DNA of 63,948 bases, counting the filler, from Candidatus Hydrogenedentota bacterium (GTDB lineage Bacteria > JBFMHD01), in the NCBI GenBank assembly GCA_040752395.1. It is 11 parts of 11 records of this genome, joined end to end, with 100 filler letters (N's around TTAATTAATTAA, not from the genome) between each part and the next. Parts side by side here need not be neighbours in the genome. Positions count along the whole stretch, not along the records: positions 1 to 17,824 come from JBFMHD010000027.1; positions 17,925 to 21,095 come from JBFMHD010000274.1; positions 21,196 to 24,359 come from JBFMHD010000275.1; positions 24,460 to 27,617 come from JBFMHD010000276.1; positions 27,718 to 30,869 come from JBFMHD010000277.1; positions 30,970 to 34,064 come from JBFMHD010000278.1; positions 34,165 to 37,205 come from JBFMHD010000279.1; positions 37,306 to 55,085 come from JBFMHD010000028.1; 3 more parts are not named here. One strand, 5' to 3'. The position numbers were made by a program, and so were the translations under genes. Below, one piece after another: positions 690 through 60,001 of this stretch. The number at the start of each line of letters is the position of its first letter. Position 1 is the stretch's first letter. The notes below the pieces were generated by a model. The model did not search any database and was not told the origin of the DNA. It saw only the letters and a list, made by a program, of their open reading frames with translations.

Positions 690-765
690 CCTCAGTCTTC
701 AGTGGGATTCCGTTATCTTGCTTCTTGCTTCTAAAGTATAAGTTCTACTGCACCAATAACTGAGG
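690..765. repeat. Mosaic intergenic element, short form with CCTCAGT/ACTGAGG inverted ends
   Basis: Near-identical in reverse complement to both ends of the element at 45169-45312; contains TCTTGCT heptamers. Confidence 0.85.
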
Positions 766-787
766 CATTACTTAAAGGTAGCAGATA

Positions 788-2653
788 ATGTGTATAGAAA
801 GGGTTTATGAAGAATTAAAAAGAAAAGATAAAATAGAGTGCTATATTCCTATTTTATGGAATTACAGGGGGAAAACTCTCCCAAATAAGAAAACCGAGAT
901 AAAAGTGGATTTAATAAAGTGGATTAGAGATATATTGTACAAAGAGATACTAAGTAAGAAAAAAAAGGATATTGATTATACAAAGCCATTGAAAGATGGT
1001 ATTAAGACAAAGGTGGCTGGGGATTGGATCACAAAAAAGAATATTATGTATGGGATGACGATACGATATTTCTCTGCTTTTGATTTTAATAAAGACAAAA
1101 AATTAAGCGGGAAAGGTTTGTTAAGAGAGACCGGGACGATACTTCGAGCCATAGCACTTCTACCATATTTAAAATCTCTTGGTATTGATGTAGTTTATTT
1201 AACGCCGATTATGAAATATTCTGATAAATTTAAAAAAGGTGACTGGGGCTCTGTTTACGCAACTGAAGATTTCTATACTATTGACCCAAATATTTCTGAC
1301 CCGTTGCTAAAAAATATATCAGCTGATCTGATGATGAAAGCATTTGTTGAATCAGCACATATTTTAAGAATGAGAGTACTTTTTGATTTTGTCCCAAGAA
1401 CTACAGCCCGGGGAAATAATACATTGATATTAAAACATCCTTATTGGTTTACATGGGTTAAAAAAGAGCACATTGACAAAATTAAACCTTTTGAGATACC
1501 GGGTCATTACCTGGGTTTAGCACCGAATAAAGAGACGGTTAAAGTTATATATGAAAACCCACAGTTCAGAGAATATATTACTTATTTTACAGAATCACCT
1601 GATAGATTAGACCCGTTGAAATGGTCGAATTTTGTTAGAGAGATAAAAGATAAAAAAGGCGTTGATGTATTATCGCTTGTTGAAAAAGAGTTCACAGTTA
1701 CAGTTCCACCTGCATTCTCAGACGTCCCAAATGATCCACAACCGCCGTGGTCTGATGTGACATATTTTAAATTATTTGAGGATATACCAGAAGAGGCAAA
1801 AAAATATTTACCACCAGAGACTATACCATATTCATTTTGTGATACAGCAAAAGCATCAAATCTGCCAGGCACCAAGCCTGTCAAAGATTTATGGGAATAT
1901 ATCTCTGAGATAGTACCCTTCTTTATTAAGGAATATGGTTTTGATGGGGTAAGACCTGATATGGCACATGCTTTACCAGTTGAGTTGTTTAATATGATGT
2001 TAAAAAAAGCCCGGGATATTCATCCTGATTTTTGCTTTTTCGCTGAAGAAATAGATGTGAATAAATCAAAAATAACCCGAGAAAATGGGAATAATCTTAT
2101 GGTGGGCGATTTATTCTGGCGGATTACACCACAGAGTAAAAATCTTATGGAATATGTAGAGTTTTTAGATGAAAAAGAGATAATGTTTTTAGGTGGTGTT
2201 GAGATAGCTGACTCTTTAAGAATAGGGAGACTGGGTGAAGAATATGCCAAATGGGCTATCGCGTTTATTATGTTTTTACCTGATACTCTTCCGTTCTGTT
2301 TAAATGGTCAGGAGCTTATTGAAAAACAACCAATGAATTTTGGACTCGTATCCAAAGCTGAACAGAAAGATTATGTAAAAGAAGATGACCACTCTTACGG
2401 TAAACTTGCGTTTTATGATAAAGTCGCTATGCACTGGGAGAATTACAAGACAGGTAATAAAATGTGTAATTTTATAAGAAAGATGAATAGCTTAAGAAAA
2501 AAATATGTAGTAAATGGTAAATGCATAATAAAAGAGGCGGATACTATAAATTATAGATTCGTATGGAAGTCTGATAACGGCAGAATTGAGGCTACTTTTA
2601 AGAATAAAGAACCATACTCATACCAGATTAAAGAGTTCAAAGTAGAGAGATGA
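788..2653 (+). CDS. GH13 alpha-amylase family protein, maltosyltransferase-like
   Basis: LPYLKSLGIDVVYLTP, GFDGVRPDMAH catalytic region, FSDVPNDPQPPWSDVTY; resembles Thermotoga-type maltosyltransferase (recalled similarity). Confidence 0.8.
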   Translation: MCIERVYEELKRKDKIECYIPILWNYRGKTLPNKKTEIKVDLIKWIRDILYKEILSKKKKDIDYTKPLKDGIKTKVAGDWITKKNIMYGMTIRYFSAFDFNKDKKLSGKGLLRETGTILRAIALLPYLKSLGIDVVYLTPIMKYSDKFKKGDWGSVYATEDFYTIDPNISDPLLKNISADLMMKAFVESAHILRMRVLFDFVPRTTARGNNTLILKHPYWFTWVKKEHIDKIKPFEIPGHYLGLAPNKETVKVIYENPQFREYITYFTESPDRLDPLKWSNFVREIKDKKGVDVLSLVEKEFTVTVPPAFSDVPNDPQPPWSDVTYFKLFEDIPEEAKKYLPPETIPYSFCDTAKASNLPGTKPVKDLWEYISEIVPFFIKEYGFDGVRPDMAHALPVELFNMMLKKARDIHPDFCFFAEEIDVNKSKITRENGNNLMVGDLFWRITPQSKNLMEYVEFLDEKEIMFLGGVEIADSLRIGRLGEEYAKWAIAFIMFLPDTLPFCLNGQELIEKQPMNFGLVSKAEQKDYVKEDDHSYGKLAFYDKVAMHWENYKTGNKMCNFIRKMNSLRKKYVVNGKCIIKEADTINYRFVWKSDNGRIEATFKNKEPYSYQIKEFKVER

Positions 2654-2656
2654 TAA

Positions 2657-4973: not shown

Positions 4974-4977
4974 AACG

Positions 4978-7912: not shown

Positions 7913-8543
7913 TTGGAATTAATTACTTTAAACTATAAAGAAGCCATAAAAATGCTTTTTCCTCAATCTCTGCATCAGCTTTGTATAGTACATCTGAAAA
8001 GAAATTTATATCGCAACCTATCTAAAGAAGATTACATCGTTTTTAAGCAGGAACTCGAAATGATATTTCTACTTACCAATTATACAGAAGCAGTCGATAA
8101 ATTTCAGTCTCTTTGTGATCGATTTTCCACTAAATATCCGTCTTTTATGGATAGTCTTAAAAAAGATGTGCTACTTTATTTCCAATTTATCCGTCTACCC
8201 ATAGATACAAGAAAACATTTAAAGACAACAAATCTTGTAGAGGGAATAAATAACCTGATTCAAAAGTTACAGAATGATTGCGGTGGATATTTTAGAAGCC
8301 AAAATCATTTAAAGGTATTGTTTATGATACAATATCACTCTTTTTATTTACACAATTTTTCTATTGACATCCCCTTGACTTCTTTCCATAAGTCTGATTC
8401 TGTTAAGGCTGTTAACGGCTTACTCATGCTATTCATAGGGTATGTTCCTCCTTTTTAAGAGTTTTTATACTTAATTAAGGAAGAATATGCCCTTTTTTAT
8501 TTCTTTTCAATATTCAATTTGCACTAAACTTTATACATTATCT
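7913..8543 (+). mobile_element. IS256-family transposase C-terminal remnant with terminal-like sequences
   Basis: QLCIVHLKRN and KTTNLVEGINN motifs; IS256-type end-like sequences near 8346-8374 and 8518-8543. Confidence 0.8.
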
Positions 8544-14203: not shown

Positions 14204-15334
14204 ATGCTTCTTTCTATAACTCCCAAATTAAGAAATAAAATAATTGGGGTCGGCGGGGATATAAAGATTAATATTTTTAAGTTAAATTATAATAGAATCA
14301 CAGAGTATAAAATCGAGGATGACATCTCTACTATCTCAGGCTGGAATAGATTTACTTTTTTGATGGCTGAATTAGTAGACAAAGACACAGTTATTCTTAT
14401 TGATAAACATCCTGCTTATTTTACCTCGAATTATATAAGAGACAATTTTAAGAACTTTAATATTATAGAGATCCCGCATCATTTTGCGCATGCCGCTCTA
14501 CCCTTAGTTGAAACAAAAAAAGAAAAAATAATCTGTGCTGTATTTGACGGCACTGGTTACGGCATTGATAATACTATCTGGGGTGGAGAATTTATTCAAT
14601 GTGCAAAAGAAGGATTTAAGAGATCAGGATGTATCGAGAGATTTCAATTAGTAGGTGGTGACCTTGCTGTTAAATCGCCTTATAGATGTGCACTCTCGCT
14701 TATACACAGACTCGATAAGGAATTAATAGATTTTACAATAAATCATTTAATCAAGGGTGTAGATAAAAGTAAAATAGATGCTATACTTAATATAATTCAT
14801 AAAAGTAAGAGTAAAATTTTTACCTCAAGTATGGGCAGATTATTTGATGCTGTAGCTGTTTTATGTGGGTTTGATAAAGAATTTACAGAAAAAGAAGCAG
14901 AACCCGCTATCTACCTTACTAATATAGCATCCTGCTTTCAGATAGACCCGAAAACCGATGGAGTAAAATCATACGAGCTTGGTATTGAAAGTATTGACGG
15001 ATTGTATGTTTTGATGTTAAATAGAATTATTGAAGGTATCATCAAGGATTTGAGAGACAAATTAGCTGTAGAATACGTTGCTTTTCGGTTTCATAAGACT
15101 ATAATTGAGGCTACGCAGAAAATCTTTGAATTACTTACCGAAAAAGAAAAGTGTAATTATTGTGCTTTAGCTGGCGGAGTCTTCCAAAACAAATTATTAA
15201 AAGAAGGATTAAATGATCTGGCTTTTATCTCAGAAAAGATAAGCTGTACTGATATAAGTCTTGGACTTGGACAGATATTTTACTATTTAATAAAAGAGGG
15301 ATACAATGTGTCTATCAGTGATTGGCAAAGTTGA
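14204..15334 (+). CDS. hypF: Short HypF carbamoyltransferase (Kae1-like domain only)
   Basis: DKHPAY, HHFAH, FDGTGYG..TIWGGEF, TSSMGRLFDA, AGGVFQN; lies upstream of hypCDE. Confidence 0.85.
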   Translation: MLLSITPKLRNKIIGVGGDIKINIFKLNYNRITEYKIEDDISTISGWNRFTFLMAELVDKDTVILIDKHPAYFTSNYIRDNFKNFNIIEIPHHFAHAALPLVETKKEKIICAVFDGTGYGIDNTIWGGEFIQCAKEGFKRSGCIERFQLVGGDLAVKSPYRCALSLIHRLDKELIDFTINHLIKGVDKSKIDAILNIIHKSKSKIFTSSMGRLFDAVAVLCGFDKEFTEKEAEPAIYLTNIASCFQIDPKTDGVKSYELGIESIDGLYVLMLNRIIEGIIKDLRDKLAVEYVAFRFHKTIIEATQKIFELLTEKEKCNYCALAGGVFQNKLLKEGLNDLAFISEKISCTDISLGLGQIFYYLIKEGYNVSISDWQS

Positions 15335-17597: not shown

Positions 17598-17824
17598 TCT
17601 GCGTTACGGACTACAGGCCTCGGGCTTCGGGCTTTTGTCTCCAGCCGGCTGTAGTCCGTAGCCTCTAGCCTGTCCCCCGAATTATTAGAGTTACAGCGTT
17701 TTTCAGAGGAGTCATCATGCGGTGCGTTGCACCGCTACACAAAGCCTGAAAAACCAGATTCAGACGTTTTCTTGCCTCTTGCTTCTTGCCTCTTTCGTTA
17801 TCTTTCTTTCCGTTATCTTGCTTC
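17598..17824. repeat. Mosaic intergenic element at a contig end (GACTACAG hairpin, RBS module, REP-like hairpin, TCTTGC heptamers)
   Basis: Stem TACGGACTACAG...CTGTAGTCCGTA; GTTACAGCGTTTTTCAGAGGAG; GCGGTGCGTTGCACCGCTACAC. Confidence 0.9.
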
Positions 17825-20782: not shown

Positions 20783-20819
20783 AATACCCAACAGCTTTTC
20801 ATCTATCAAAGAAAAAATA

Positions 20820-21095
20820 ATATTTACAGAAGGAGTCAACATGAGTGCGGGTCGCGCTCTACACTATTTGGTTCTTGGGTTCTTGGGTTCTTGGGTTATT
20901 GGGTTCTTGGGTTATTGCGTTTTTGTGCTCTACACAAAGGATGAAAAACTAAAGATGATATGAAAAGAGTCGTGAGTCGCAAGTCGTGAGTCAAAACAGG
21001 ACTCGAGACTCAAGACTCAAGACTTTTCAGCAGGCTCTGGGCTTTTGGCTCCAGCCGGCTGTAGTCCGTAGCCTGTAGCCTGTCCTGATACCTCT
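20820..21095. repeat. Mosaic intergenic element at a contig end (REP-like, GGTTCTT, GAGTC/GACTC and GTAGCCT modules)
   Basis: Modules recur nearly identically at 24240-24359, 31240-31410, 34165-34350, 35180-35420 and 37075-37205. Confidence 0.92.
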
Positions 21096-23119: not shown

Positions 23120-23283
23120 TTTTCTACAGACTATGGTCTTTTCAGACTCCAGGCTTTTGGCTCCAGCTGGCTGTAGTCCGTAGCCTGTAGCCTGTACCCT
23201 GTCCTGATACTTCTCACTTCTTCCGTTATCTTGCTTCTTGCTTCTACTTGATATTATTATAATTACAATGTTTTTCAGAGGAG
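23120..23283 (+). repeat. Mosaic intergenic element ending in the RBS module upstream of 23294
   Basis: ...TCTTGCTTCTACTTGATATTATTATAATTACAATGTTTTTCAGAGGAG. Confidence 0.9.
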
Positions 23284-23293
23284 TAAGACGAGA

Positions 23294-24178: not shown

Positions 24179-24359
24179 ATAAGAGGCAAGAGGCAAGAGC
24201 GTCAAAGAGTCGAGAGTCGAGGGTCAGGAGGGAAAGGCACAGAGGCACAGAGGCACAAAGTATGAAAAGAGTCACAAGTCGCAAGTCGTGAGTCAAAACA
24301 GGACTCGAGACTCAAGACTCAAGACTCAAGACTTTTCAGCAGGCTTTGGGCTTTTGGCT
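24179..24359. repeat. Mosaic intergenic element at a contig end
   Basis: AGGCAAG, GAGTCGA, AGAGGCAC (8-mer) and GACTCAA arrays. Confidence 0.9.
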
Positions 24360-26856: not shown

Positions 26857-27617
26857 TTATTTCCTGAATCTGCTACTTTCAGTGCAGAAGAAACAAGTAA
26901 TCCCTTTCTTGTTCGGATATTTTACAATGAGTACTCGTATTATCGAAGCAGCTGGTTTCCAATATGCTGTAAATGTCTGCAACGAGATAGTAACTTTTTT
27001 ACCATATAAAAATAACGTATACCTTTTAAATAATGATACTCGTTTTGATGATTCCATCAATGATGGCAACCGTATCCCATATTTACGAGGTCTGCCTCGT
27101 TTTCTACATTTAGGATAAAGAACAGCATCAATTCTTAACCGACTTATAAAAATAATACCATTGGAGATACAGTGTTTTAATAAAGCTTCTTTAGCATAGA
27201 AAGCGTCTGCAACTATAATAAAATAAGACTTTATTCGTTCCTTTATCTTTCGCAATATTTGTATAGCTATATCTATCCGAGATATATGTTCTTTATTATA
27301 TGGTTTATATTTCTGTGGGATGTAAAGTTGAGCAAGGATAGGAAAACAAAGCCATTTAGAGACAAGAGTTGAAAAATGAATAAGTGATATAAAAACCCAG
27401 TTATGACCATAAATATATTTTGATTCATTCTGTTTTGCAGAATGATTGAAATGTATACCACAACCAAAAATATGTTTACCCTTTTTCCCTATGAGTGTAT
27501 CGTCAAGTGCAAAGGTTAGTGGTTCTTTTATATTCAATGTTTTTATAATGACTTCGATTAACACAAAAGCCAGTTCATAAATACTCCATACATATTGATT
27601 AAGAAATTTATGAAAGT
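26857..27617 (-). mobile_element. IS701/IS4-like DDE transposase, truncated
   Basis: ALDDTL..KKG, YGHNWV, VADAFYA, RGRPRKYG, FFCT; stops before the final catalytic E region; 5' part cut by the contig end. Confidence 0.8.
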
Positions 27618-27718
27618 NNNNNNNNNNNNNNNNNNNNNNNNNNNNNNNNNNNNNNNNNNNNTTAATTAATTAANNNNNNNNNNNNNNNNNNNNNNNNNNN
27701 NNNNNNNNNNNNNNNNNA

Positions 27719-27859
27719 GCTATAGAAAATAAAGCAAGTTGTATCGCTATTGAATCTTTAAAATCTTTATTTTTTCAGAGAGAAGACTCCATTGATTTGG
27801 CTAACAAACATAAATTAAGTATAATCGGGTTACCATATAATTGGAATGTGTCCACTTAG
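27719..27859 (+). CDS. lpxI: 3' end of an LpxI-like UDP-2,3-diacylglucosamine hydrolase (partial)
   Basis: Manual translation AIENKASCIAIESLKSLFFQREDSIDLANKHKLSIIGLPY resembles the LpxI C-terminus. Confidence 0.6.
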   Translation, partial: AIENKASCIAIESLKSLFFQREDSIDLANKHKLSIIGLPYNWNVST

Positions 27860-28039: not shown

Positions 28040-28873
28040 ATGAAAAATTTAATTGTTAGTATAGTTGTTACGATGATAATCATTACAGTAATAATTATCT
28101 ATATATGTAAAAGTAATACTTCAATAAAACAATGGGAATTTGCTTCAAAAGATATTAATCAGATAATGGCTGTCGAAAATAAGTCCTCAGAAATAATAAG
28201 AAAGAATGAATTTTCCCAAGACGATATTGATTTTATAAATCAAGCAATACGTCAAGATAAAGACATTGTTTTAAAGGGAGCAATCATTTGTAAAGAGTTA
28301 ATCCCAAAAATAAAGCATTCTAGTACTGAAAGGATTGATAAAATTATCGAGAAACCGAGAAACAATCAGGCCATTAATATATTAATTTCCTTTATTCAGG
28401 ATGAGTCTATTACAGACACCATCTACAAATCAGAGGCCATTCGAGCATTAAGCTTGCATCGTAAGAAAGAACATAAGGATATCTTTGAAAGAATATTACA
28501 AACTGAGACTGAACTTGAAATAAGGGCAGCCTGCGGAAGCGCGTTGTACCGGATTAGTTATAAAGAGAGAGCTTATGATATTTATGAGGAAGTTGTAAAA
28601 AATGGATATCCTGTATCAGTTGGACAATATGATTTTAAAAATGATCCTGATGCAAAAGAAATGCTTTTTCGTACATTACAATACGATAATAATCCGGTTG
28701 GTCAGGCATTATCATTATATTTTTTATCAAGACTTGGTGAAAATAAATCTATAAGTGATATTTATGTAAGATTATACGATAAATTAAAAAACAATGAAAT
28801 ATTCAATAAAGAGGAAAAGAATGCTGTGGAAATATACTTAGAATGGACAAAATACAATTTGGAGGGGAAATAA
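28040..28873 (+). CDS. Membrane-anchored HEAT-repeat-like protein
   Basis: N-terminal TM segment; helical repeats EAIRAL and IRAACGSALYRI. Confidence 0.6.
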   Translation: MKNLIVSIVVTMIIITVIIIYICKSNTSIKQWEFASKDINQIMAVENKSSEIIRKNEFSQDDIDFINQAIRQDKDIVLKGAIICKELIPKIKHSSTERIDKIIEKPRNNQAINILISFIQDESITDTIYKSEAIRALSLHRKKEHKDIFERILQTETELEIRAACGSALYRISYKERAYDIYEEVVKNGYPVSVGQYDFKNDPDAKEMLFRTLQYDNNPVGQALSLYFLSRLGENKSISDIYVRLYDKLKNNEIFNKEEKNAVEIYLEWTKYNLEGK

Positions 28874-28875
28874 TC

Positions 28876-30750
28876 ATGAAAATAAAAACTATATTAGCGT
28901 TCGTTATATTGTTAATAGGAAATTTTATTACTATTTTATCTTATGGATATGATAGAAATGCAGCTGTTGCTTATGCTAATAAATTCTATTCGATACCAAA
29001 TTCACAATGGTTTGAAGTTAAGGATGAAGATTGCGCAAATTTTGGTTCACAGTGTGTTATTGCGGGCAATTTGATATGTGATAAATCGTTTGCTGCAGGA
29101 GGCCCAACAATAAATTATAAACAAGGCAATGGTTATACATTTGAGCAGGCTCGGGACTTGGCCTGGTGGCTGATCAATTCCGGCTTAGCAGAAGAAAAAG
29201 GATATAGATTTGTCGGACAGGATAAATACATGCCTGGGATTGGACCTGGTGATATAATAATATGGATTAAAAATCTCGGTACTCCTCAAGAAGAGTATTT
29301 CCATACGCTTGTTGTAACGAATGTTATACAAGGGAAAATAGAATATGCTTGCCATACAGTACCACCATTAAAAGGGGATTTGGATACAAACTATCATGAT
29401 AAACATCTTTATTACTTACATTTAAAAGATGCGCCGATTATAAAGTATTTCAAGCTGGAGGGTGATGCCGGATATACTATTACGGAATGGAAATATGATG
29501 ATGATTACACACAAGGACCGACAATGGGAGAATATTACAAAAACACGTATAACGGTCTTAATCCAACACCGCTTGATCCAGATAGACCGATTTGGACAGT
29601 AACATCTGGCGGAACAAAAATTACTGCGTTGTTTGACTGCGAAATGGAGCAGACTGAAGATGTGATGATGGTAGCGCCTGAAGGAATAAATAATGATTTT
29701 GTTTATACAGGTATCACTTCCGGGGCATGGACAATAGGTCCAAATAGTAAGTGGCAGGCTAAATTTACAAAACAATGGTCAGATTTAACCAATGAGCAAA
29801 GAGCAACTGAAAACATCAAAACTTGGTTTATCGTAAACAAGGCAAAATCAACAGACGGAAGTTTGATTGATGAGGACAACAAACTAAATAAATATTCAGT
29901 ATGGGATAAAGGATACGGCAAATCACATACTGAAGAACTGAAACTTGATAACTTCCTACCGTACCTTGTGAAGATGGAAGTGTTTCAGAACAACGAGCAG
30001 AAATATTTGTCAGAGTGGGTATGGGATGGTTCGCAAATGAAACAAAAAACAACTAAAAATGATTTTCTTAAATGTAATCAAGAAATTGTTATGAGTTTAT
30101 ACTTCAGCGAAGGTATCAAACAGGTACAAAACGAGATTAGCATAATCAATGACCATACCTATGAGATCAGAAAAGTATTCTCTAATTTATCTGATGAACA
30201 AGTTGTTATGGTCGAGGCGATCGATTATGCCAGCAATGAATTATATGGGAAGCCTGAAAATATTCCAACCATCAGTCGAAATAATCAAGGAGTTTGGGTA
30301 TATGGTCCCAAAAAAGACATGAATCATAAGATCAAATTCCTGAATATAGCAAAACTCGACTTTGGATATTTTAAAGACCAGCCAGAGAAGACGGAATTAA
30401 GTGCTTATCTTGACAAAGACGGTATAAAATTGTCTCGAAAGGAAATCATATTTAGTGGAGATAGAGCTTTGTCAAGATTGACCATATCTCCTCGAGGTGG
30501 TATAGTATTATATGAATATAGTCCGTCGCCGATGTATAATAGGATAGGCAGAATTGATCTTGCTTATGAATCAATACCACCCTATCAATTATTAGGGCAA
30601 AACCAGAGGGATCCAGATCTTTCCTCGGACACAGGGTATTTGACATACATAAATCATACTGATGAAATATTTAAAATTGAAAACAATGCAGGTATTGTGT
30701 TTGCTCAGGTTCTTCAGGATTTACTATTCAGATTCTTTCCTATAGTTTAG
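28876..30750 (+). CDS. Secreted protein with putative amidase (Amidase_6/NlpC-P60-like) domain, possibly truncated at the 3' end
   Basis: Signal peptide; YDRNAAVAYA, DCANFGSQC, PGDII, HTLVV, YACHT. Confidence 0.75.
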   Translation: MKIKTILAFVILLIGNFITILSYGYDRNAAVAYANKFYSIPNSQWFEVKDEDCANFGSQCVIAGNLICDKSFAAGGPTINYKQGNGYTFEQARDLAWWLINSGLAEEKGYRFVGQDKYMPGIGPGDIIIWIKNLGTPQEEYFHTLVVTNVIQGKIEYACHTVPPLKGDLDTNYHDKHLYYLHLKDAPIIKYFKLEGDAGYTITEWKYDDDYTQGPTMGEYYKNTYNGLNPTPLDPDRPIWTVTSGGTKITALFDCEMEQTEDVMMVAPEGINNDFVYTGITSGAWTIGPNSKWQAKFTKQWSDLTNEQRATENIKTWFIVNKAKSTDGSLIDEDNKLNKYSVWDKGYGKSHTEELKLDNFLPYLVKMEVFQNNEQKYLSEWVWDGSQMKQKTTKNDFLKCNQEIVMSLYFSEGIKQVQNEISIINDHTYEIRKVFSNLSDEQVVMVEAIDYASNELYGKPENIPTISRNNQGVWVYGPKKDMNHKIKFLNIAKLDFGYFKDQPEKTELSAYLDKDGIKLSRKEIIFSGDRALSRLTISPRGGIVLYEYSPSPMYNRIGRIDLAYESIPPYQLLGQNQRDPDLSSDTGYLTYINHTDEIFKIENNAGIVFAQVLQDLLFRFFPIV

Positions 30751-30869
30751 CTATAGAAAATAAAGCAAGTTGTATCGCTATTGAATCTTTAAAATCTTTA
30801 TTTTTTCAGAGAGAAGACTCCATTGATTTGGCTAACAAACATAAATTAAGTATAATCGGGTTACCATAT
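30749..30869 (+). repeat. 121-bp exact direct repeat of 27718-27838 (lpxI 3' segment)
   Basis: Both contig ends read AGCTATAGAAAATAAAGC...GGGTTACCATAT. Confidence 0.97.
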
Positions 30870-31134: not shown

Positions 31135-31143
31135 GTCCTTAAT

Positions 31144-31515
31144 TCCTCCTCTGAAAAACGTTGTCACTCTAATGATATCAAGTAGAAGCAAGAGACAAGA
31201 GGCAAGAAGCAAGATAAACAAACATCTGGTTTTTCATCCTTTGTGTAGAGCGCAAAAACCCAAGAACCCAAGAACCCAATAGTGTAGAGCGCAACCCGCG
31301 CTCATGTTGACTCCTATGAAAAGTCTTGAGTCTTGAGTCCTGTTTTGACTCACGACTTGCGACTCACGACTCTTTTCATATCATCTTTAGTTTTTCATCC
31401 TTTGTGTACCCCGTTAGAGAACGAAATTTAACTCTATGCTGTTAACAGAGTAACTTTTGAAAAAATAGACTTCAGCCTACGAGCTACCAGCTACTGCTGA
31501 AAAGCCGAGAGCCAC
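31144..31515. repeat. Mosaic intergenic element ending in the RBS module of rfaD
   Basis: CTCCTCTGAAAAACG, AGAAGCAAG arrays, GTGTAGAGCGCAACCCGCGCTC and the GAGTC/GACTC module. Confidence 0.92.
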
Positions 31516-31773: not shown

Positions 31774-31910
31774 AAAAAACAATACTCCTTAAAATAAAAT
31801 TAAAAGCTATTCTCACGAAAGTAAGAATATAACGCTTTTTAGCAAAATTTACATTATATTATTATTTTGTCAAATATTTTTTAAAAAAATTTTCTTTTCC
31901 CACACACCAA

Positions 31911-32052
31911 TGAAAAGTTAAAAGTTAAAAGTAAAGAAAAACATCTGGTTTTTCATACTTTGTGCCTTTGTGCCTTTGTGCCTCTTTTCCTCCACTTTAA
32001 AGTGTCTCACGTTTCAGGGGAGCAGTATATTACAGCGTTTTTCAGAGGTGTT
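31911..32052. repeat. Mosaic intergenic element
   Basis: TGAAAAGTTAAAAG..., TTTGTGCC 8-mers, TTACAGCGTTTTTCAGAGG. Confidence 0.85.
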
Positions 32053-33930: not shown

Positions 33931-33938
33931 AATAATAA

Positions 33939-34064
33939 CTCCTCTGAAAAACATTGTAACTCTAATGATATCAAGTAGAAGCAAGAGGCAAGAAGCAAGA
34001 TAACGGAAGAAGTGAGAGGTATCAGGACAGGCTACAGGCTACGGACTACAGCCGGCTGGAGCCC
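33939..34064 (-). repeat. Mosaic element with the RBS module of hisG, at a contig end
   Basis: Reverse complement ...CTACTTGATATCATTAGAGTTACAATGTTTTTCAGAGGAG-8 nt-ATG. Confidence 0.92.
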
Positions 34065-34164: not shown

Positions 34165-34352
34165 GACTACAGCCGGCTGGAGCCCGAAGCCAAAAGCCTC
34201 CTGAAAAGTCTTGAGTCTTGAGTCTCGAGTCCTGTTTTGACTCACGACTTGCGACTCACGACTCTTTTCATATCATCTTTAGTTTTTCATATATTGTGTA
34301 GAGCGGAACCCGCGCTCATGACGACTCACGACTCTCGACTCTTTGACTCCAT
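34165..34352. repeat. Mosaic element downstream of rpmD, at a contig start
   Basis: GACTACAGCCGGCTGGAGCC, GAGTC/GACTC module, GTGTAGAGCGGAACCCGCGCTC. Confidence 0.92.
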
Positions 34353-36384: not shown

Positions 36385-36619
36385 TATGTCGCTTCGCTCC
36401 ATTGTAAATTGTAAATTACAAATTTATTTGCCTACTACGGGTCTTGTGACCCTCACTACTTCGTCGGAGTTCGGAGTTCGGAGCTCGGAGCTCGGATCTA
36501 TTATTACGAACTCCTAACTCCTAACTTTTTCATACTTTGTGCCTTTGTGCCTCTTCGGTTATCTTGCTCCTTGCCTCTTGCCTCTAATTCGTGCTGTTTC
36601 TTGCTTCTTGCTTCTAATA
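36385..36619. repeat. Mosaic element between rpsH and rplF
   Basis: TTGTAAA arrays, GTAG hairpin, GGAGTTC/CTCCTAA module, TTTGTGCC and TCTTGC arrays. Confidence 0.9.
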
Positions 36620-37018
36620 CTAATACACCACACAGATACGCTCGCCACCGAGATTGTTCTTCTTTGCTTTTGAATTTGTCATTAACCCTTTTGAAGTAGA
36701 AATAATTTCTATACCTACCCCGGCCATAACAGGTCTAATATCAGCTGATTTCACATAGACTCTACCACCTGGTCTTGAAATCCTTACAAGTTGGTGAATA
36801 ACAGGTTCACCTTCGTCATTATATTTCAAAAATATTCTAATAATTCCACGTTTATCGTTTTTTACAATCTTGAAATGTTTTATAAACCCTTCTTCTTTTA
36901 ATATTTTTGCTATACCTATTTTTAATCTTGATGAGGGTATATCAACTTTTGCATATCTTTCTTTATTAGCATTGCGGATACGTGTTAACATATCAGCTAT
37001 AGGATCAGTCATTACCAT
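36620..37018 (-). CDS. rpsH: 30S ribosomal protein S8
   Basis: TDPIADMLTRIRNA, ISRPG.RVY, STSKG, GGE. Confidence 0.97.
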   Translation of the reverse strand: MVMTDPIADMLTRIRNANKERYAKVDIPSSRLKIGIAKILKEEGFIKHFKIVKNDKRGIIRIFLKYNDEGEPVIHQLVRISRPGGRVYVKSADIRPVMAGVGIEIISTSKGLMTNSKAKKNNLGGERICVVY

Positions 37019-37029
37019 TTTTAATTAGT

Positions 37030-37205
37030 TCCTCCTCTGAAAAACGCTGTAACTCTAATAATTCGGGGTACAGGCTACAGGCTACGGACTACAGCCGGCT
37101 GGAGCCAAAAGCCAAACGCCTGCTGAAAAGTCTTGAGTCTTGAGTCTTGAGTCTTGAGTCTTGAGTCCTGTTTTGACTCACGACTCTTTTCATATCATCT
37201 TTAGT
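37030..37205. repeat. Mosaic element with the RBS module of rpsH, at a contig end
   Basis: CCTCCTCTGAAAAACGCTGTAAC, GGCTACA array and a five-unit AGTCTTG array. Confidence 0.92.
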
Positions 37206-43134: not shown

Positions 43135-43215
43135 CCCTCCTCTGAAAAAGTTCGAAGTTCGGAGTTCGGAGCTCGTATCTATTATTACGAACTCCTAACT
43201 CCTATCTTTTTCATA
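43135..43215. repeat. Compact mosaic element between gatA and gatB
   Basis: TGAAAA-(GGAGTTC)n...(CTCCTAA)n-TTTTCA; its TTTTTCAGAGGAG end is the gatB SD. Confidence 0.88.
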
Positions 43216-45168: not shown

Positions 45169-45312
45169 CCCTCGGTTATTGGTGCAGTAGAACTTATACT
45201 TTAGAAGCAAGAAGCAAGAAGCAAGATAACGGAAGAAGTGAGAAGTGAGAGGTATCAGAAAATAGAAGCAAGAGGCAAGAAGCAAGACTACGGAATTCCA
45301 CTGAAGACTGAG
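45169..45312. repeat. Mosaic element, long form of 690-765
   Basis: CCTCGGTTATTGGTGCAGTAGAACTTATACTTTAGAAGCAAG...CCACTGAAGACTGAG with an extra internal block. Confidence 0.88.
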
Positions 45313-47979: not shown

Positions 47980-48094
47980 ATGAATTTCGACTCCTCATCC
48001 TAAGACCCCTGACTCTGAGCACTACACCTATAACCATGTTAGTCGACATTCTGCATAATGTTAAATTGGAAATTTTAGCCCGTTAGATTTTGTT

Positions 48095-48195
48095 TATCTT
48101 GCCTCTTGCTTTTACTTGATATTATTATAGTTACAGCGTTTTTCAGAGGAGTAAAAATAAATTTGCGATTTACAATTTACAATGGAGCAAAATGA
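48095..48195 (+). repeat. Mosaic element upstream of ppx (RBS module plus TTTACAA module)
   Basis: TCTTGCCTCTTGCTTTTACTTGATATTATTATAGTTACAGCGTTTTTCAGAGGAG...TTTACAATTTACAATGGAGC. Confidence 0.88.
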
Positions 48196-48199: not shown

Positions 48200-49141
48200 A
48201 TGTCTGAATTATACTCAAGTATCGATCTTGGAACTAACACATTGCGACTCTTAATAGCAGAATTCAAATACCCATATTTACAGCCCATTGAGATGCTTAT
48301 CTCTATGCCACGAATCGGCGCTGATCTTATTAATACAAACTATATTGATACAAACTCATTAAAAAGAACTATTCATTACTTAAGAGTTTATTCTAAAATA
48401 TTGAATAATTATTCAATAAAAAACCCTATCTGTTTTGCTACCGCTTCTCTACGTTATGCGAAAAATAAAAATACTGTTCTACAAAAAATTAAGAAAGCCA
48501 CAGATCTCGAATTCACTGCAATTAGCGGTGAGAAAGAAGGCTATTTATCATTTCTTGGTGCCACTTATTCGCTTGGTTCAAAATTTAAAGAAAAATTAGT
48601 TATGGTTATAGATATAGGTGGTGGTTCAACTGAATTGTCAGTTGGTTATCCCTGCAGGAAACCAATTATCAGTCATAGTCTTCGGCTTGGCTCCTGTATG
48701 CTATGCGAAAAATTCAACCTATTCGAATACCCTGATAAAAAATCTATACTCAATGCAAAAGAATATATCATCGAGCAAATTAAAACTTTGAAAAAATTTC
48801 AATTTACCCATTTAATAGGTGTTGCCGGAACAATTACTACATTAAAAACAATCAGTTTGAAACTTGAAATATATAAAAAATCACTTATACAGAACTCCAC
48901 GCTGTCATTAAACGAGGTCTCTGAAATATATAATTTAGTAAAAATATTATCAATAAAACAAAGACTCTCTATGAAAGGGTTACCAGAGGGTAGAGCTGAT
49001 GTGATTATTGGTGGAAGTCTTATTACAAAAACAATACTTGAATACTTTGACGTTAATTCATTAATAGTTTCTGATGAGGACATAATGTATGGTGTTATAT
49101 ACGAAAAAGTAGGAACTAAGAAAGCCGGGTGTAGTCCGTAG
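48200..49141 (+). CDS. ppx: Ppx/GppA exopolyphosphatase (short form)
   Basis: IDLGTNTLRLLIA, ATASLR, ISGEKEG, DIGGGSTE, RADVIIGG. Confidence 0.9.
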   Translation: MSELYSSIDLGTNTLRLLIAEFKYPYLQPIEMLISMPRIGADLINTNYIDTNSLKRTIHYLRVYSKILNNYSIKNPICFATASLRYAKNKNTVLQKIKKATDLEFTAISGEKEGYLSFLGATYSLGSKFKEKLVMVIDIGGGSTELSVGYPCRKPIISHSLRLGSCMLCEKFNLFEYPDKKSILNAKEYIIEQIKTLKKFQFTHLIGVAGTITTLKTISLKLEIYKKSLIQNSTLSLNEVSEIYNLVKILSIKQRLSMKGLPEGRADVIIGGSLITKTILEYFDVNSLIVSDEDIMYGVIYEKVGTKKAGCSP

Positions 49142-49241
49142 CCTGTAGCCTGTAGCCCGTCCTGACACCTCTCACTTCTTCCGTTATCTTGCTTCTTGCC
49201 TCTACTTGATATCATTAGAGTTACAATGTTTTTCAGAGGAG
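49124..49241 (+). repeat. Mosaic element joining ppx and dus; contains the ppx stop and the dus SD
   Basis: GCCGGGTGTAGTCCGTAG(stop)CCTGTAGCC...TTTTTCAGAGGAG-5 nt-ATG. Confidence 0.92.
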
Positions 49242-49246
49242 ATGAT

Positions 49247-54966: not shown

Positions 54967-54969
54967 AAC

Positions 54970-55085
54970 TCTCCTCTGAAAAACATTCTAACTCTAATAA
55001 TATCAAGTAGAAGCAAGAGGCAAGAGGCAAGAAGCAAGATAACGGAAGAAGTGAGAGGTGTCAGGACAGGCTACAGGCTACGGAC
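54970..55085 (-). repeat. Mosaic element with the RBS module of dnaB, at a contig end
   Basis: Reverse complement ...CTACTTGATATTATTAGAGTTAGAATGTTTTTCAGAGGAG-4 nt-ATG. Confidence 0.92.
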
Positions 55086-56090: not shown

Positions 56091-56128
56091 AAGGTTTTTA
56101 AGTGAGATGGCGGAATTAAGAAGAGCAG

Positions 56129-58321: not shown

Positions 58322-58507
58322 TTACATCTCTTAAAAGACCGTAAAAAAGAACGTAAGCGGTTATATAACGAATTTGTTTTGTTCTGGCAGCAGCTGAAAA
58401 ACGAAAATACGATTAATAACCTCATCAACCTTTTATACTTGTATATCAAACCGAAAACCAGCGAACCTAAAGACCCTCACTGTAATCCCTTGGTTACACG
58501 TGAGTAA
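58322..58507 (+). CDS. 3' end of a possible CHAD-domain protein
   Basis: Manual translation LHLLKDRKKERKRLYNEFVLFWQQL...; context next to a phosphoesterase-HD gene. Confidence 0.4.
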   Translation, partial: LHLLKDRKKERKRLYNEFVLFWQQLKNENTINNLINLLYLYIKPKTSEPKDPHCNPLVTRE

Positions 58508-58640
58508 GAAGTAAAAAGTAAATAGTAGGAAGTATCATTAAGAAAGTAAGAAGTATCAGATATATAATGAAAAACTGATGATAGTTTTAATCTTTTAATC
58601 TTTGAATTTTTTGAATCTTTCAATCTCTGTGCCTTTGTTA
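58504..58640. repeat. Degenerate mosaic element (GTAAGAA heptamers, ATGAAAAACT, TTTAATCT 8-mers)
   Basis: Periodic 7-8-nt repeats starting at the upstream stop codon. Confidence 0.65.
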
Positions 58641-58642
58641 AC

Positions 58643-60001
58643 ATGCGAATCGCATTAATCGGTGATATCCACGCAAACTTACCTGCTTTAGAATCTGTTT
58701 TAGAACATGCTACTAAAAATCATTGCGAAGCTATCTGGAATATCGGTGATTTTGTTGGTTATGGACCGTTCCCTGATGAAGTCGTTCGCAGAATAATTAA
58801 AGAAAAAGCTCTTAGCATTATCGGTAATTATGACCTTAAAGTGCTTGAATTAGGGTCACACACCAAACCGAGTGGTAAAACCACAACCAGTGTAAAGAAA
58901 AACTCTGAAAAATTGCTTGCTTTCAAATGGACCTATAATAACCTGACAAAATCAAGTAAAGAATATTTAGCTTCGCTGCCACGTGAGATCCGACTGGTAA
59001 TCGAGGGTAAAAAGATACTCCTTGTTCATGGAACCCCGTATTCAATTGAAGAACATCTTTACCCTCATACAAAAGAAAAACGTCTAAAAGAGATAGCTGC
59101 ATCAGCTAACGCAGATATTATTATCTGCGGTCATTCTCATAACCATTTTATTCGCCCTGTTAATAATGTGCTCTTTATAAATACAGGGAGCGTAGGCCGG
59201 CCCGATGACGGTGACCCCAGAGCCTGTTACGCAATACTCGATATCTCAAAAGATTCTGTCAGTGCTAATCATTTCCGCATTGATTATGATATCGATAAAA
59301 CTGTTAATGAGATTCGTAAACAGGCTCTACCTGAAAACTTTGCACAGATGATAATCAAAGGAAGAAGCCTGGAATATGTTGTGAAGAAGACAGAAGACAG
59401 AAGACAGAATAAGAAAAAACAAAAAATTAGAGAATCGGTTTATAAATTTGCTGAGAGCTATGAATATGCCAAAGAGCATTCAGAACAGGTACGCTTTATC
59501 TCGTTTCTGTTATTTGATGAATTAAAAACATTACATAAACTTAATGAAGCTGAGAGATTTTATCTTGAGTGTGCCTGTATCTTACATGATATCGGTCTTA
59601 TGTATGGTTTAAGCGGCCATCATAAGACTTCTTTACAACTTATCTTACAGTCATCTCTTTTTAACAAACGCGAGCGACTTATTATTGGCTCTATAGCGCG
59701 TTACCATCGTAAAGCACTGCCCTCTAAAAAACATAAGCATTTTGCTCAACTCGATAAAAAAGACCAGAAAATCGTCTGCATCCTCTCCGGGATATTACGT
59801 TTAGCTGATGCACTCGATACAAGTCACCAAAGTATTATTCAGAATATTACCTGTAAAATCTCAAACAAAAAAATCAAGATTACGTGTTATACAAAAAGTC
59901 AATATGAAGAACCTCTGGAACGAATTATTCGTAAAGCCGAGCTATTCAAACAAATCTTTAATAGAGAACCAGATGTTAGATGGGTGCATCAAGTGGCTTA
60001 A
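58643..60001 (+). CDS. Metallophosphoesterase (YfcE-like) fused to a Ppx/GppA-type HD domain
   Basis: GDIHAN, GDFVGYG, GNYD, CGHSH, NTGSVG; then H...V, ILHDIG, HHK, ARYHRK, LRLADALD. Confidence 0.88.
   Translation: MRIALIGDIHANLPALESVLEHATKNHCEAIWNIGDFVGYGPFPDEVVRRIIKEKALSIIGNYDLKVLELGSHTKPSGKTTTSVKKNSEKLLAFKWTYNNLTKSSKEYLASLPREIRLVIEGKKILLVHGTPYSIEEHLYPHTKEKRLKEIAASANADIIICGHSHNHFIRPVNNVLFINTGSVGRPDDGDPRACYAILDISKDSVSANHFRIDYDIDKTVNEIRKQALPENFAQMIIKGRSLEYVVKKTEDRRQNKKKQKIRESVYKFAESYEYAKEHSEQVRFISFLLFDELKTLHKLNEAERFYLECACILHDIGLMYGLSGHHKTSLQLILQSSLFNKRERLIIGSIARYHRKALPSKKHKHFAQLDKKDQKIVCILSGILRLADALDTSHQSIIQNITCKISNKKIKITCYTKSQYEEPLERIIRKAELFKQIFNREPDVRWVHQVA

Follow-up and report, generated by a model that had tools for sequence, protein, structure and literature searches.

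Repeat elements in the window

The window, i.e. the whole stretch of 63,948 nt that was analysed, consists of 11 contigs of one metagenome-assembled genome (MAG), with runs of N between them. The MAG represents an uncultured, deeply branching bacterium of the Candidatus Hydrogenedentota (2.84 Mb in 349 contigs, GC content 34.8%, 93.8% complete). The window has 35 repeat blocks with a length of 35 nt or more, spread over 10 of the 11 contigs, and 24 of these, on 7 contigs, contain units ('tokens') of a common kit of modules. The original prediction had described about 25 mosaic elements on 9 of the 11 contigs: its count agrees with the 24 kit-token blocks, and the observation itself is real, all 19 positions that it named (17 examples and both ends) lying on multi-copy blocks, while the number of contigs depends on the criterion applied.

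The modules are designated here as A (the end piece, terminating in GAGGAG), b and B (pyrimidine heptamers), C and D (putative heptamer-armed hairpins), E (GTAG followed by a GC palindrome) with its octamer array e, F and J (arrays), G, H and I (putative hairpins), L (a linker), P (a promoter-like piece) and X (a variant in place of P). The elements are as follows (a dot marks features given without a strand):

691..771, +: short element of TCTTGCT heptamers (module B), 5' of the gene starting at 788
17628..17824, +: C-X-A past the hypE stop codon, then an E-like hairpin and B arrays to the contig end
17931..18079, +: E tail, linker L, C and b, at a contig start
19425..19655,.: divergent spacer that contains P and B, both inverted, GTAG hairpins of G type and arrays of AATTTGC/AATTTAC
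20808..21095, +: composite E-e-(E)-L-D-C to the contig end; D hairpin at about 20958-21030, C at about 21026-21092
23152..23293, +: composite C-b-B-P-A, its GAGGAG end 8 nt before the ATG at 23294
24181..24359, +: inverted B, J array (AGGCACAG), D hairpin and start of C, to the contig end
27871..27966,.: I-type hairpin (AAAAGTT / AACTTTT), then inverted B
31143..31408, -: two serial units; the minus strand reads L-D, then E-e-E-B-P-A
31872..32048, +: I array, linker, F array (CTTTGTGC) and degenerate A
33937..34064, -: C-b-B-P-A into hisG; A end at 33939-33951
34165..34348, -: E hairpin, L, D and partial C, at a contig start
35108..35430, -: full-length composite E-e-E-L-D-C-b-B-P-A, 323 nt, between two minus-strand genes
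36387..36619,.: G, H, F and B modules in a chain, upstream of the gene ending at 36372
37029..37205, -: D-C-X-A into the gene at 36620-37018
43135..43215, -: H hairpin, T-run and A end, between gatA and gatB
45175..45300,.: inverted arrays of B and b, 5' of the gene at 45365
48089..48188, +: B-P-A, then G-type heptamers, just 5' of the ATG at 48182
49130..49245, +: C tail, then b-B-P-A
54969..55085, -: C-b-B-P-A into dnaB, to the contig end
59385..59409, +: AGAAGAC x 3.6 within the open reading frame at 58643-60001

Across the genome, 1,044 repeat blocks account for 4.9% of the MAG and, as ORFs were called with our own crude picker, approximately 34% of its non-coding DNA, with 93% of the repeat-block bases outside ORFs. 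This is a lineage-specific, non-coding and modular repeat family located at gene junctions; as had been predicted, it is very abundant, its copies are highly similar and they contain no enzyme.

Module counts, folding and order

By approximate matching, every predicted module from A to I is present genome-wide, with 404 matches for A, 725 for B, 319 for C, 226 for D, 261 for E (245 for octamer array e), 164 for F (214 for J), 50 for G, 55 for H and 72 for I. These counts are far above chance: the reversed pattern of the A core yielded 4 matches, and the module-C 22-mer was found 325 times as compared to 0 for its control, with no matches in 40 other genomes. Of perfect arrays with 2.5 or more copies, 927 have a period of 7, as compared to 81 with a period of 6 and 3 with a period of 9, and the MAG contains at least 74 unit types.

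The predicted hairpins hold for some modules. As judged by comparison with shuffled sequences, folding is strong for D (z -6.1) and H (z -5.4 / -4.4) and moderate for C (z -2.2), but that of E-e-E is no better than in shuffles (z +0.8). The H copies are nearly identical, so the covariation check gave no informative signal.

The modules follow the order E-e-E / L / D / C / (b-B-P or X) / A, to which 94.6% of the core pair orders conform (3,790 of 4,007). The outer arrays, inverted B and J, are likewise fixed in side and orientation, inverted B lying to the left of the core 46 times and to the right 5 times and J to the left 90 times; composite B arrays are mostly one-sided rather than paired. 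Module order is therefore largely fixed and not freely combinatorial, contrary to the shuffling that had been proposed. The copies differ in heptamer copy number and in the loss of internal or 5' modules, and this variety looks like the outcome of deletions and repeat slippage. Slippage is indicated by the left- and right-arm copy numbers of D, which are uncorrelated (r = 0.02, n = 206) in this short-read assembly with its possibly collapsed heptamer numbers.

If slippage acted within each spacer and nothing was copied between loci, simple-sequence evolution in situ would account for the family as a whole. In many bacteria no other long simple repeats are as over-represented as heptamers (Mrazek 2007, as quoted in passages of PMC4679880 and PMC4692102), we found heptamer arrays at 14 of 80 unrelated metagenomic loci, and independent variation of the arms is what such a process would give. 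Slippage is, however, unable to make shared junctions independently at each site, and hundreds of loci have non-repetitive linkers and junctions in common, such as L, the AAAACAG loop of D, the centre of C (CAGCCGGCTG) and P-A; for the 34-nt P-A stretch we counted 338 copies, of which 42 match the commonest P form exactly. We consider this explanation very improbable.

An assembly artefact, that is, chimeric short-read joins of one or few simple repeats, appears more improbable still. It would fit the 349 contigs, over half of whose ends lie in repeats (366 of 698), but the MAG contains 631 multi-token chains, and 231 A-bearing blocks, with other sequence on both sides, are 60 nt or more away from a contig end. 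Nor would chimeras be expected to place GAGGAG consistently 4-12 nt before start codons. Furthermore, contig C128 of another MAG bin (G041) repeats the E-L-C-X-A order, with identical junctions, ahead of a gene; its far end shares 97% protein identity with the start of contig C343 of G000, which places both in the same population.

Anchoring at gene starts

Module A stops abruptly at GAGGAG, 4-12 nt upstream of start codons, and conservation drops abruptly past this point. An ORF of at least 60 aa lies within 24 nt after 302 of the 404 A cores, as compared to 221 of 2,000 random positions, and a co-directional gene start lies ahead of 289 of 308 resolvable A-bearing blocks; 62 A cores are away from any ORF, module or tRNA start. 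Among spacers of at least 50 nt, blocks are present in 406 of 768 co-directional, 80 of 179 divergent and 34 of 135 convergent ones. The two bases past the boundary are G in 46% and T in 45% of cases (continuing AGGAGGT), versus 30% and 37% at native GGAG sites. Two of the four tRNAs that start with GGAG are directly adjoined by ...GTTTTTCAGA, and GGAG is therefore part of the tRNA there.

Module P has the promoter-like form TGnTATTAT and carries TGATATTAT. A near-identical P-like stretch finishes at the 5' ends of two tRNA-Pro genes; a sigma-70 scan did not single P out. P and X are split by genomic context to a weak degree: divergent spacers hold 19 of 115 P cases and 3 of 40 X cases.

Such placement could reflect a selected regulon, in which the arrays are multivalent protein-binding sites, for S1, Csp, a CsrA-like or IHF/HU-like protein or the four-helix-bundle protein of the cassettes, a pentamer, and P-A is a common leader for about 300 genes. 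The position before start codons and the polarity resemble the TAACTGA repeats of Beggiatoaceae, for which passages of PMC4679880 propose translational regulation, and paired hepta-/octamer sites of Geobacter metallireducens are read as global regulator sites in the relevant part of PMC2700814. Moreover, the B heptamers can pair with the Shine-Dalgarno (SD) region in the predicted fold (z -2.7). Against a regulon, the genes that follow the elements are housekeeping genes unrelated to one another (hisG, dnaB, gatB, tRNAs), arm numbers drift freely, many blocks lack A or face away from genes, and repeats at over half of the contig ends and in 5% of the genome fit proliferation better than design. 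Regulation as the origin is thus unlikely, though it keeps some credit.

Four-helix-bundle gene cassettes

The four-helix-bundle family (PF05635, TIGR02436), known from intervening sequences (IVS) of 23S rRNA, also occurs free-standing and is homologous to the Avd protein of diversity-generating retroelements (DGRs). The MAG has five such genes (23S-IVS/S23p, Avd-like), enclosed by arrays whose units have 7 or 8 bases, a point of likeness to IVS. For three of them the arrays are inverted and consist of kit units, namely of B type in C347, of D type in C284 and of J/F type at C92:3632; the gene at C92:6 has an e-like unit upstream, its downstream flank being lost at the contig end, and the gene in C146 lies between inverted arrays of a heptamer outside the kit. 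The suspicion that cassette genes of this kind are flanked by similar repeats was thus right. In two cassettes the ORF is truncated. Linker L aligns with the 5' end of one four-helix-bundle ORF with a score equalled in 0.8% of shuffles; for modules C, H, G and I, the MAG lacks a counterpart with an ORF.

The association extends to unrelated genomes, where 20 of 26 IVP genes have inverted-repeat flanks as compared to 5 of 104 shifted controls. In G077, which has a single IVP gene, the arm heptamer pattern matches 2,463 times (control: 1), with +/- pairs 50-100 nt apart. The hairpins resemble such cassettes of a small four-helix-bundle gene with the gene missing; the direction could also be the reverse, with a small gene inserting into pre-existing hairpins.

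Search for mobilizing enzymes

The original prediction had named a RAYT/Y1-HUH nuclease as a candidate driver, which the MAG does not support: PF01797 had 0 matches in the 93.8%-complete assembly and did match in control genomes. Reverse transcriptase, which is the partner of Avd in DGRs, TnpB and rve gave 0 matches each in the MAG, and no multi-copy transposase family was found in it. We know of no catalytic role for the four-helix-bundle protein. Three DDE_Tnp_1 genes are present, one of them in the window at 26857-27564; their contigs have no kit repeats near these genes, and the ends are unlike the modules (inspected base by base in C261 only).

These results bear on two further explanations. 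In a REP/REPIN-type system, GTAG-tagged hairpins (E, G, C) would be moved in trans by RAYT, the mosaics being BIME-like clusters. Module E indeed reads GTGTAGAGCGC..GCGCTC, i.e. GTAG and then a GC palindrome, G and C carry GTAG too, and the elements are extragenic, clustered and present in hundreds of copies; REPINs are inverted REP doublets forming hairpins, as stated in a passage of PMC3116915, and a single-copy RAYT gene could be absent from a fragmented, incomplete assembly. However, E-e-E has its two GCGCTCTACAC copies in direct, not inverted, orientation, the family is mostly tandem heptamers and not REP palindromes, and fixed module order and strict gene-start polarity are foreign to REPINs. 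Together with the missing PF01797 and TnpB matches, this makes a REP/REPIN origin quite improbable.

Alternatively, each hairpin module would be a small MITE mobilised by a DDE transposase (IS4/IS5-like), with the terminal inverted repeat TGAAAAA...TTTTTCA and perhaps TA flanks, and nested insertion would give the composites. D, H and L do have ends in common, TGAAAA(A/G)...(C)TTTTTCA. Of 203 D copies, 173 are flanked by TATGAAAAG or TATAAAAAG; TA often comes before the ends (TATGAAAAG, 137 of 203) and sometimes after them (TTTTCATAG, 25 of 203). The DDE_Tnp_1 genes exist, and MITEs with outward promoters are well known, e.g. Correia (in the portion of PMC10969869 concerned). Yet most D copies are followed by GCAGG and not by TA (TTTTCAGCA, 151 of 203), the DDE genes are unlinked to the kit as described above, and a multi-copy transposase family is missing. 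Furthermore, the inter-module junctions are identical at more than 100 loci, which argues that whole composites, and not single modules, were copied. A MITE origin is unlikely, with a small chance of being right.

Comparison with known repeats

Tandem heptamers are known from cyanobacteria as STRR. The SDR of Nostocales (Elhai et al. 2008), mobile repeats of very small size, are reportedly nested in heptamer arrays and other repeats, giving mosaics; we know of no gene-start anchoring described for them, and phylum and sequences differ from ours. BOX modules of Streptococcus pneumoniae keep their order and vary in number (boxA, n x boxB, boxC), and mycobacterial MIRUs are direct repeats of 40-100 bp with small overlapping ORFs.

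Like enterobacterial BIMEs and BOX, our elements are modular extragenic multi-copy composites, and they share the clustering and mutual insertion mentioned in a section of PMC10969869; they have no likeness to them in sequence, and they differ in being built of tandem-heptamer hairpins and in having an end piece at a constant distance from start codons, while no RAYT gene was found in the MAG. Like MIRUs and the Neisseria Correia elements, of which the latter per the same section carry promoters, are cut by RNase III and have 26-bp TIRs and TA duplications (PMC10969869), they lie at gene junctions and can give the next gene translation or transcription signals, but heptamer hairpins and a common SD end are absent from both.

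Other bacterial heptamer repeats include the G-rich ones of Xanthomonas and Nostoc (PMC4692102) and those of marine Beggiatoaceae (PMC4679880) and G. metallireducens (PMC2700814) described above. As portrayed in the pertinent passages, these share a unit of 7-8 nt, intergenic location, usually 2-6 copies and variable length, and are sometimes inverted pairs or just 5' of start codons; the same passages speak of one or few unit types per genome in single arrays or pairs, whereas here at least 74 unit types, fixed unique linkers and a polar composite that ends at the SD sequence are found.

A close likeness to the cassettes is with the 23S rRNA IVS of Coxiella, Leptospira and Salmonella, which according to passages of PMC4990558 have an inverted-repeat stem, a small ORF, prone to decay, in the loop, and tandem heptamers before the ORF in strain-variable number; that of Coxiella has terminal inverted repeats, with heptamers preceding the ORF for S23p, and RNase III cleaves it (PMC4990558). 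Unlike IVS, our elements lie outside rRNA, nearly all lack an ORF and they number hundreds of copies, with several cassette types chained in fixed order and a promoter/RBS cap at gene starts. A literature search found no published link between dispersed heptamer hairpins and the four-helix-bundle gene family.

Proposed origin and function

We favour, at a probability of roughly 0.5, a composite repeat of about 320 nt and fixed polarity, made of gene-less IVS-type cassettes chained to a promoter/RBS end and copied to gene starts. In order, it comprises optional outer arrays (inverted B, J), the GTAG/GC hairpin with octamers (E-e-E), L, the heptamer-armed hairpins D and C, the pyrimidine heptamers b and B, P or its variant X, and A, whose GAGGAG end takes the position of the gene's SD sequence. 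The ancestral cassette may have held a small S23p/Avd-like gene inside two inverted tandem arrays; the hairpin modules would be its gene-less descendants, chained as remnants before whole composites were copied to several hundred gene starts. The sameness of copies and junctions suggests copying to new sites, which may have been aimed at, or joined through, GGAG, the SD core.

For the gene upstream, the hairpins could serve as terminators of transcription or as sites of RNase III cleavage, since their stem is accompanied by an A-tract and a T-tract, as with the flanks of D given above; the MAG does have an RNase III gene. P-A would supply the promoter, a short leader and the RBS of the downstream gene. 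A regulatory role is compatible with the gene-less cassette composite, as an element that has spread can be co-opted.

A heptamer-based repeat family fills a third of the non-coding DNA

The metagenome-assembled genome (MAG) from which the window derives, hereafter G000, comprises 2.84 Mb in 349 contigs (designated by C-numbers), with a GC content of 34.8% and an estimated completeness of 93.8%, and is the sole representative of its phylum in the searched genome set. The original prediction of about 25 mosaic elements in the window agrees well with our count: we find 35 multi-copy blocks, 24 of them carrying modules of the repeat kit (the parts lettered A, B, b, C, D, E, e, F, G, H, I, J, L, P and X), and all 17 positions named as examples, as well as both limits, lie on such blocks. 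Genome-wide, the 1,044 blocks of at least 35 nt account for 140.7 kb, corresponding to 4.9% of the assembly and ~34% of its non-coding DNA, with 93% of block bases located outside ORFs as called by our own crude ORF picker. The true repeat load must be higher than counted, since 366 of the 698 contig ends sit inside repeats of the family.

Among perfect tandem arrays (2.5 copies or more), a period of 7 nt is the most common (927 arrays; 81 have period 6, 178 period 8 and 3 period 9), and 74 heptamer types are present. The family thus consists of head-to-tail 7-nt units, is intergenic and has an over-represented period, as expected of tandem heptamer repeats. Approximate matching across G000 yielded 725 copies of module B, 404 of A, 319 of C, 300 of P, 262 of b, 261 of E, 245 of e, 226 of D, 214 of J, 164 of F, 149 of L, 114 of X, 72 of I, 55 of H and 50 of G. 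The 404 matches of the A core compare with 4 for the reversed core, and a 22-mer from module C has 325 matches in G000 vs none for its control and none in 40 other genomes. Outside G000 this 22-mer was found on one contig in another MAG bin, which represents the same population; it has no match in JGI metagenome contigs, where the GatB relatives reach a best identity of 59%. No Rfam family matches the modules of the window or 14 ‘orphan’ regions following A. The family is real and extreme.

Several further features of the assembly were recorded. Heptamer arrays, some with whole module fragments, occur inside long ORFs (window 59385-59409; G000 C21:6512, C98:4536, C46:17908 and C324:5201) and may reflect in-frame insertions or fusion of neighbouring genes; the ORF holding the first of these arrays (58643-60001) matches YfcE phosphoesterase over residues 1-208 only. 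An apparently separate ~35-nt multi-copy stretch (...TTTATTTACACAATTTTTCTATTGACATCC) at window 8338-8372, also present at C5:9349 and C100:~100, ends in a TTGACA-like hexamer and is possibly a shared promoter. The genes of the window include hypD/E/F, acetate kinase (ackA), PorV/PorQ, xanthine dehydrogenase, gatAB, dnaB and hisG. A cyanobacterial origin, considered in view of the STRR-like heptamers, was rejected on the strength of these genes and of the isolated phylum placement of G000. The hypF-like ORF (14204-15334) is 376 aa long and covers the 741-position HypF model only from 392 to 738, so that the part for the N-terminal half is absent or located elsewhere. A 5S rRNA gene (61424-61540) lies at the very start of contig C222; the MAG contains no 16S rRNA gene from which to read the anti-Shine-Dalgarno sequence. 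Finally, contig C198 (3,152 nt) bears the same ~120-nt stretch at both ends (27718-27837 and 30750-30869), and may be either a small circular molecule or bounded by a direct repeat that halted the assembler; its ORFs 28040-28873 and 28843-30750 have no NCBIfam match.

Modules follow one order

The modules had been proposed to be shuffled. We tokenised every element with anchor tokens and scored module precedence, and the result overturns this proposal: a single order is held by 3,790 of the 4,007 pairs among E, L, D, C, b, B, P and A, and over all 15 tokens 5,163 pairs agree vs 501 against. Sides are similarly fixed, with inverted B lying to the left of the core in 46 cases and to the right in 5, and the J array found to the left in 90 cases. 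There are 367 distinct token strings, and the commonest multi-module strings form a nested series with a common A end – ‘P A’, ‘B P A’, ‘b B P A’, ‘C b B P A’, ‘D C b B P A’, and so on up to ‘E e E L D C b B P A’. Internal losses (e.g. ‘E B P A’ and ‘E C X A’) and recurrent alternative junctions of the linker L (into D, into C, or via a different linker into B) are present as well. Given the fixed order and fixed sides, the mosaic look results from module presence or absence, heptamer copy number and a few extra hairpins (H, G, I and F). The copy numbers of the left and right arms of D are uncorrelated (r = 0.02, n = 206), and this independent variation points to slippage rather than upkeep of a symmetric stem. 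BIME- and BOX-type composites have the same organisation – few module kinds, conserved order and variable module number – although the likeness is one of organisation only, without sequence relation to the G000 modules.

Since copies keep a common A end and differ at the 5′ side, 5′-truncation as in target-primed reverse transcription was considered; we rank it low, as no reverse transcriptase was found in the MAG and internal deletions are equally common.

The A end piece falls on the Shine-Dalgarno sequence

An ORF of at least 60 aa, or one running off the contig, begins within 24 nt after the A core in 302 of 404 cases, as compared to 221 of 2,000 random positions. The spacing peaks at 5-8 nt, and 289 of the 308 resolvable A-bearing blocks lead into a co-directional gene start. 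In an alignment of 379 copies, 83-99% conservation extends through ...GTTTTTCAGAGGAG and is lost abruptly beyond it. The two bases after this boundary are skewed (G 46%, T 45%), continuing AGGAGGT; the values for native GGAG sites are 30% and 37%. Two of the four tRNA genes that start with GGAG, tRNA-Ser on C28 and tRNA-Tyr on C175, are directly abutted by ...GTTTTTCAGA, and in both the GGAG belongs to the acceptor stem and not to the repeat. These observations favour GGAG-directed copying, or joining via GGAG, rather than random insertion and later selection; 62 A cores, located at no gene, module or tRNA start, count against such targeting.

The opposite end of full-length units also resembles a gene start. 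Module E (window 20836-20860, and all E copies, e.g. C321:2509) begins with AGGAG, a 5-nt spacer that has three recurrent variants, and then ATGAGCGCGG. The resulting AGGAG-N5-ATG at the left edge of E accounts for 25 ‘A E’ tandem joins. The start of E mimics a translation start before a frame of 9-44 codons, and could represent the relic of a lost ORF or else a leader peptide.

Hairpins and candidate expression signals

The predicted capacity of the modules to fold was borne out in part. D (z -6.1) and H (z -5.4 / -4.4) fold strongly and C moderately (z -2.2), but E-e-E folds no better than its shuffles, a small GC stem aside; the H copies are so alike that covariation in this hairpin carried no information. 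The left flank of D is TATGAAAAG or TATAAAAAG in 173 of 203 copies and its right flank is TTTTCAGCA in 151 of 203, and H ends in CTTTTTCA directly 5′ of GAGGAG. From this A-tract, stem and T-tract arrangement of D and H we infer the layout of putative two-way intrinsic terminators.

Module P holds TGATATTAT, an extended -10-like motif, and two tRNA-Pro genes are preceded by a near-identical P-like stretch that ends exactly at the tRNA 5′ ends. A sigma-70 consensus promoter scan did not single out P, and P and X differ weakly by genomic context. The succession of hairpins, P and A would then stop or process the upstream transcript, restart transcription and bind the ribosome. Among spacers of 50 nt or more, blocks are present in 53% of the co-directional, 45% of the divergent and 25% of the convergent class, a distribution in line with such a stop-restart-RBS reading, for which the evidence is soft.

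No RAYT, reverse transcriptase or TnpB gene is found in the MAG

A RAYT or Y1-HUH nuclease had been put forward as a candidate for the driving enzyme. This candidate fails: PF01797 has no match at E <= 0.01 in the 93.8%-complete MAG, and control genomes were positive. REP/REPIN systems combine a RAYT gene, usually flanked by its own REPs, with short, imperfect, GC-rich palindromes that carry a GTAG tag and for the most part occur as inverted doublets. Modules E, G and C do carry GTAG and small GC stems; the E copies beside octamers are direct, heptamer arrays dominate the family, and no RAYT gene is found in G000.

MITEs have terminal inverted repeats matching those of a resident insertion sequence, plus target-site duplications. 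Module ends of the form TGAAAAA...TTTTTCA are seen, with inconsistent TA flanks. G000 has three DDE_Tnp_1 (IS4/IS5-like) genes, namely a fragment at the end of contig C197 (window 26857-27564, minus strand) and one gene each on C261 and C205, and no kit repeats lie beside any of them. Searches for PF00078 (reverse transcriptase, RT), PF07282 (TnpB) and PF00665 (rve) returned no matches in G000, and there is no transposase family among its multi-copy protein families. The latter search surfaced one five-copy family of small membrane-anchored repeat proteins, which start with MEWVIT, are hydrophobic over an N-terminal stretch and contain 7-residue DVQKTSL repeats in varying number. Its genes, each located between kit elements and followed by AAAGATTG octamers, have no Pfam match:

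C79:12636-13034, MEWVIT family gene
C3:8049-8435, MEWVIT family gene
C298:15008-15391, MEWVIT family gene
C291:10687-10968, MEWVIT family gene
C90:842-1123, MEWVIT family gene

Four-helix-bundle cassettes share their arms with the modules

The alternative candidates of the original prediction, small four-helix-bundle cassette genes said to be flanked by similar repeats, are indeed present: PF05635 matches five genes of G000, a family that NCBIfam names ‘four helix bundle protein’ (TIGR02436). One of these also matches the model of Avd, the accessory protein of diversity-generating retroelements (DGRs), below cut-off (42.7 vs 80 bits); no RT gene (PF00078), as a DGR would have, lies beside the Avd-like gene in G000.

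Four-helix-bundle cassettes of G000 and their flanking arrays (arms)
C347: AGAGGCA/AGAAGCA units on one side, TCTTGCT units on the other; module B, inverted
C284: GAGTCGT x3 and GACTCAA units; module D arms; ORF truncated, running into the right arm
C92:3632: AGGCACA(A/G) and CT(C/T)TGTGCC units; modules J/F; ORF with internal deletion
C92:6: GCGTTCTT units upstream, like module e; downstream side cut by the contig end
C146: AGTCCAC and GTGGACT units; a type outside the kit

All four cassettes that have both flanks present are bracketed by inverted arrays, so that the ORF-bearing copies are IVS-type cassettes, with a PF05635/TIGR02436 ORF inside stem-capable inverted repeats. A strict automatic bracket test, in which each side of a gene must hold, within 140 nt, a perfect reverse-complement 10-mer taken from a periodic 14-mer, is positive for 33 of 2,161 genes, C146 and C347 among them; the other positives are mostly AT-rich noise or ordinary genes between two neighbouring elements. 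One small ORF between inverted B arrays on C13, considered as a hidden cassette gene, proved to encode ribosomal protein L7/L12.

The modules may themselves derive from such cassettes by ORF loss. Cassettes and modules have the arm units of B, D, J/F and e in common; modules C, H, G and I have no cassette counterpart in G000. Furthermore, the linker L, found immediately behind the J arm, can be aligned with the first 27 nt of the C92:3632 ORF, which begins right behind the same arm (an alignment equalled by 0.8% of shuffles, p about 0.008). Unlike IVSs that sit in helix 25 or 45 of 23S rRNA and are excised by RNase III, all copies examined are located between genes for proteins or tRNAs; G000 does have an RNase III gene.

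Inverted heptamer arms accompany the cassette gene in other bacteria

PF05635 was found in 48 of 120 other genomes, drawn as one genome per family from randomly chosen bacterial families. For one gene per genome, we scored flanks as inverted repeats when the two 220-nt flanks had at least three reverse-complement 9-mers in common. This was the case at 20 of 26 evaluable loci vs 5 of 104 windows shifted by 700-1,000 nt, and the examples inspected are plainly inverted heptamer arrays. Together with the arms shared in G000, this general association supports the reading that the modules are probably non-autonomous relatives of the four-helix-bundle cassettes.

Proliferation of the arms is lineage-specific. 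In one genome with a single PF05635 match (G077), the cassette arm pattern has 2,463 matches vs 1 for the control, and none in four other genomes; the matches are plus/minus pairs 50-100 nt apart, without an ORF. In another genome (G046) the pattern is almost confined to the cassette (11 of 19 matches).

Perfect heptamer arrays are present at 14 of 80 unrelated metagenomic GatB loci, some as inverted pairs just 5′ of the Shine-Dalgarno (SD) sequence and ATG. Strings of different heptamer arrays, often inverted pairs, occur on four of these metagenome contigs (L037:2250-2400, L069:3240-3400, L086:2190-2330 and L094:8870-8930) from unrelated bacteria with GC contents of 46% to 69%; the L037 pair lies directly before GGAG and ATG.

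Discussion

Intergenic heptamer repeats of bacteria have been noticed since the 1990s and, to our knowledge, never explained. Two studies report that, among long simple repeats, heptamers show the strongest over-representation in many bacteria, and that those of Xanthomonas and Nostoc are intergenic and sometimes inverted (PMC4692102, PMC4679880); one of these accounts places TAACTGA repeats just 5′ of start codons in Beggiatoaceae (PMC4679880). In Geobacter metallireducens, 4-5 tandem octa- or heptamers form paired sites on opposite strands, which have been read as regulator sites (PMC2700814). As described in PMC4990558, the Coxiella IVS has a stem of terminal inverted repeats, cut by RNase III, that encloses a decaying S23p ORF preceded by a strain-variable number of tandem heptamers; older proposals cited there regard the IVS as a mobile element, with the ORF serving its mobility. 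The resemblance of PF05635 to DGR Avd is remarked on in PMC10053308. In the literature searched, supplements excluded, we found no publication linking dispersed heptamer hairpins to the PF05635 gene family.

A broader reading, to which we assign a probability of slightly under one in five, is that the cassettes are a widespread, undescribed class of mobile elements. The gene-less hairpin derivatives would then be to S23p/Avd-like cassettes what MITEs are to insertion sequences. In the G000 lineage, a chained derivative would have gained a promoter/RBS end piece, and the composite would integrate at the GGAG of SD sequences and of tRNA 5′ ends. The four-helix-bundle protein would be the specificity factor, a pentameric nucleic-acid-binding protein that might work together with host enzymes or via an RNA intermediate, and over one-tenth of the genes would have had their expression signals rewritten by one selfish element.

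If this is true, heptamer repeats would find their genetic home with a small-gene cassette found in 48 of 120 bacterial families, and annotators and binners would have reason for caution, as half of the contig breaks of this MAG involve the family and long ORF calls extend into it. SD targeting and promoter delivery by an element would become directly testable questions, and G000 would represent an extreme takeover of gene-start signals by a repeat, with ~300 genes and two tRNAs provided with one leader and RBS.
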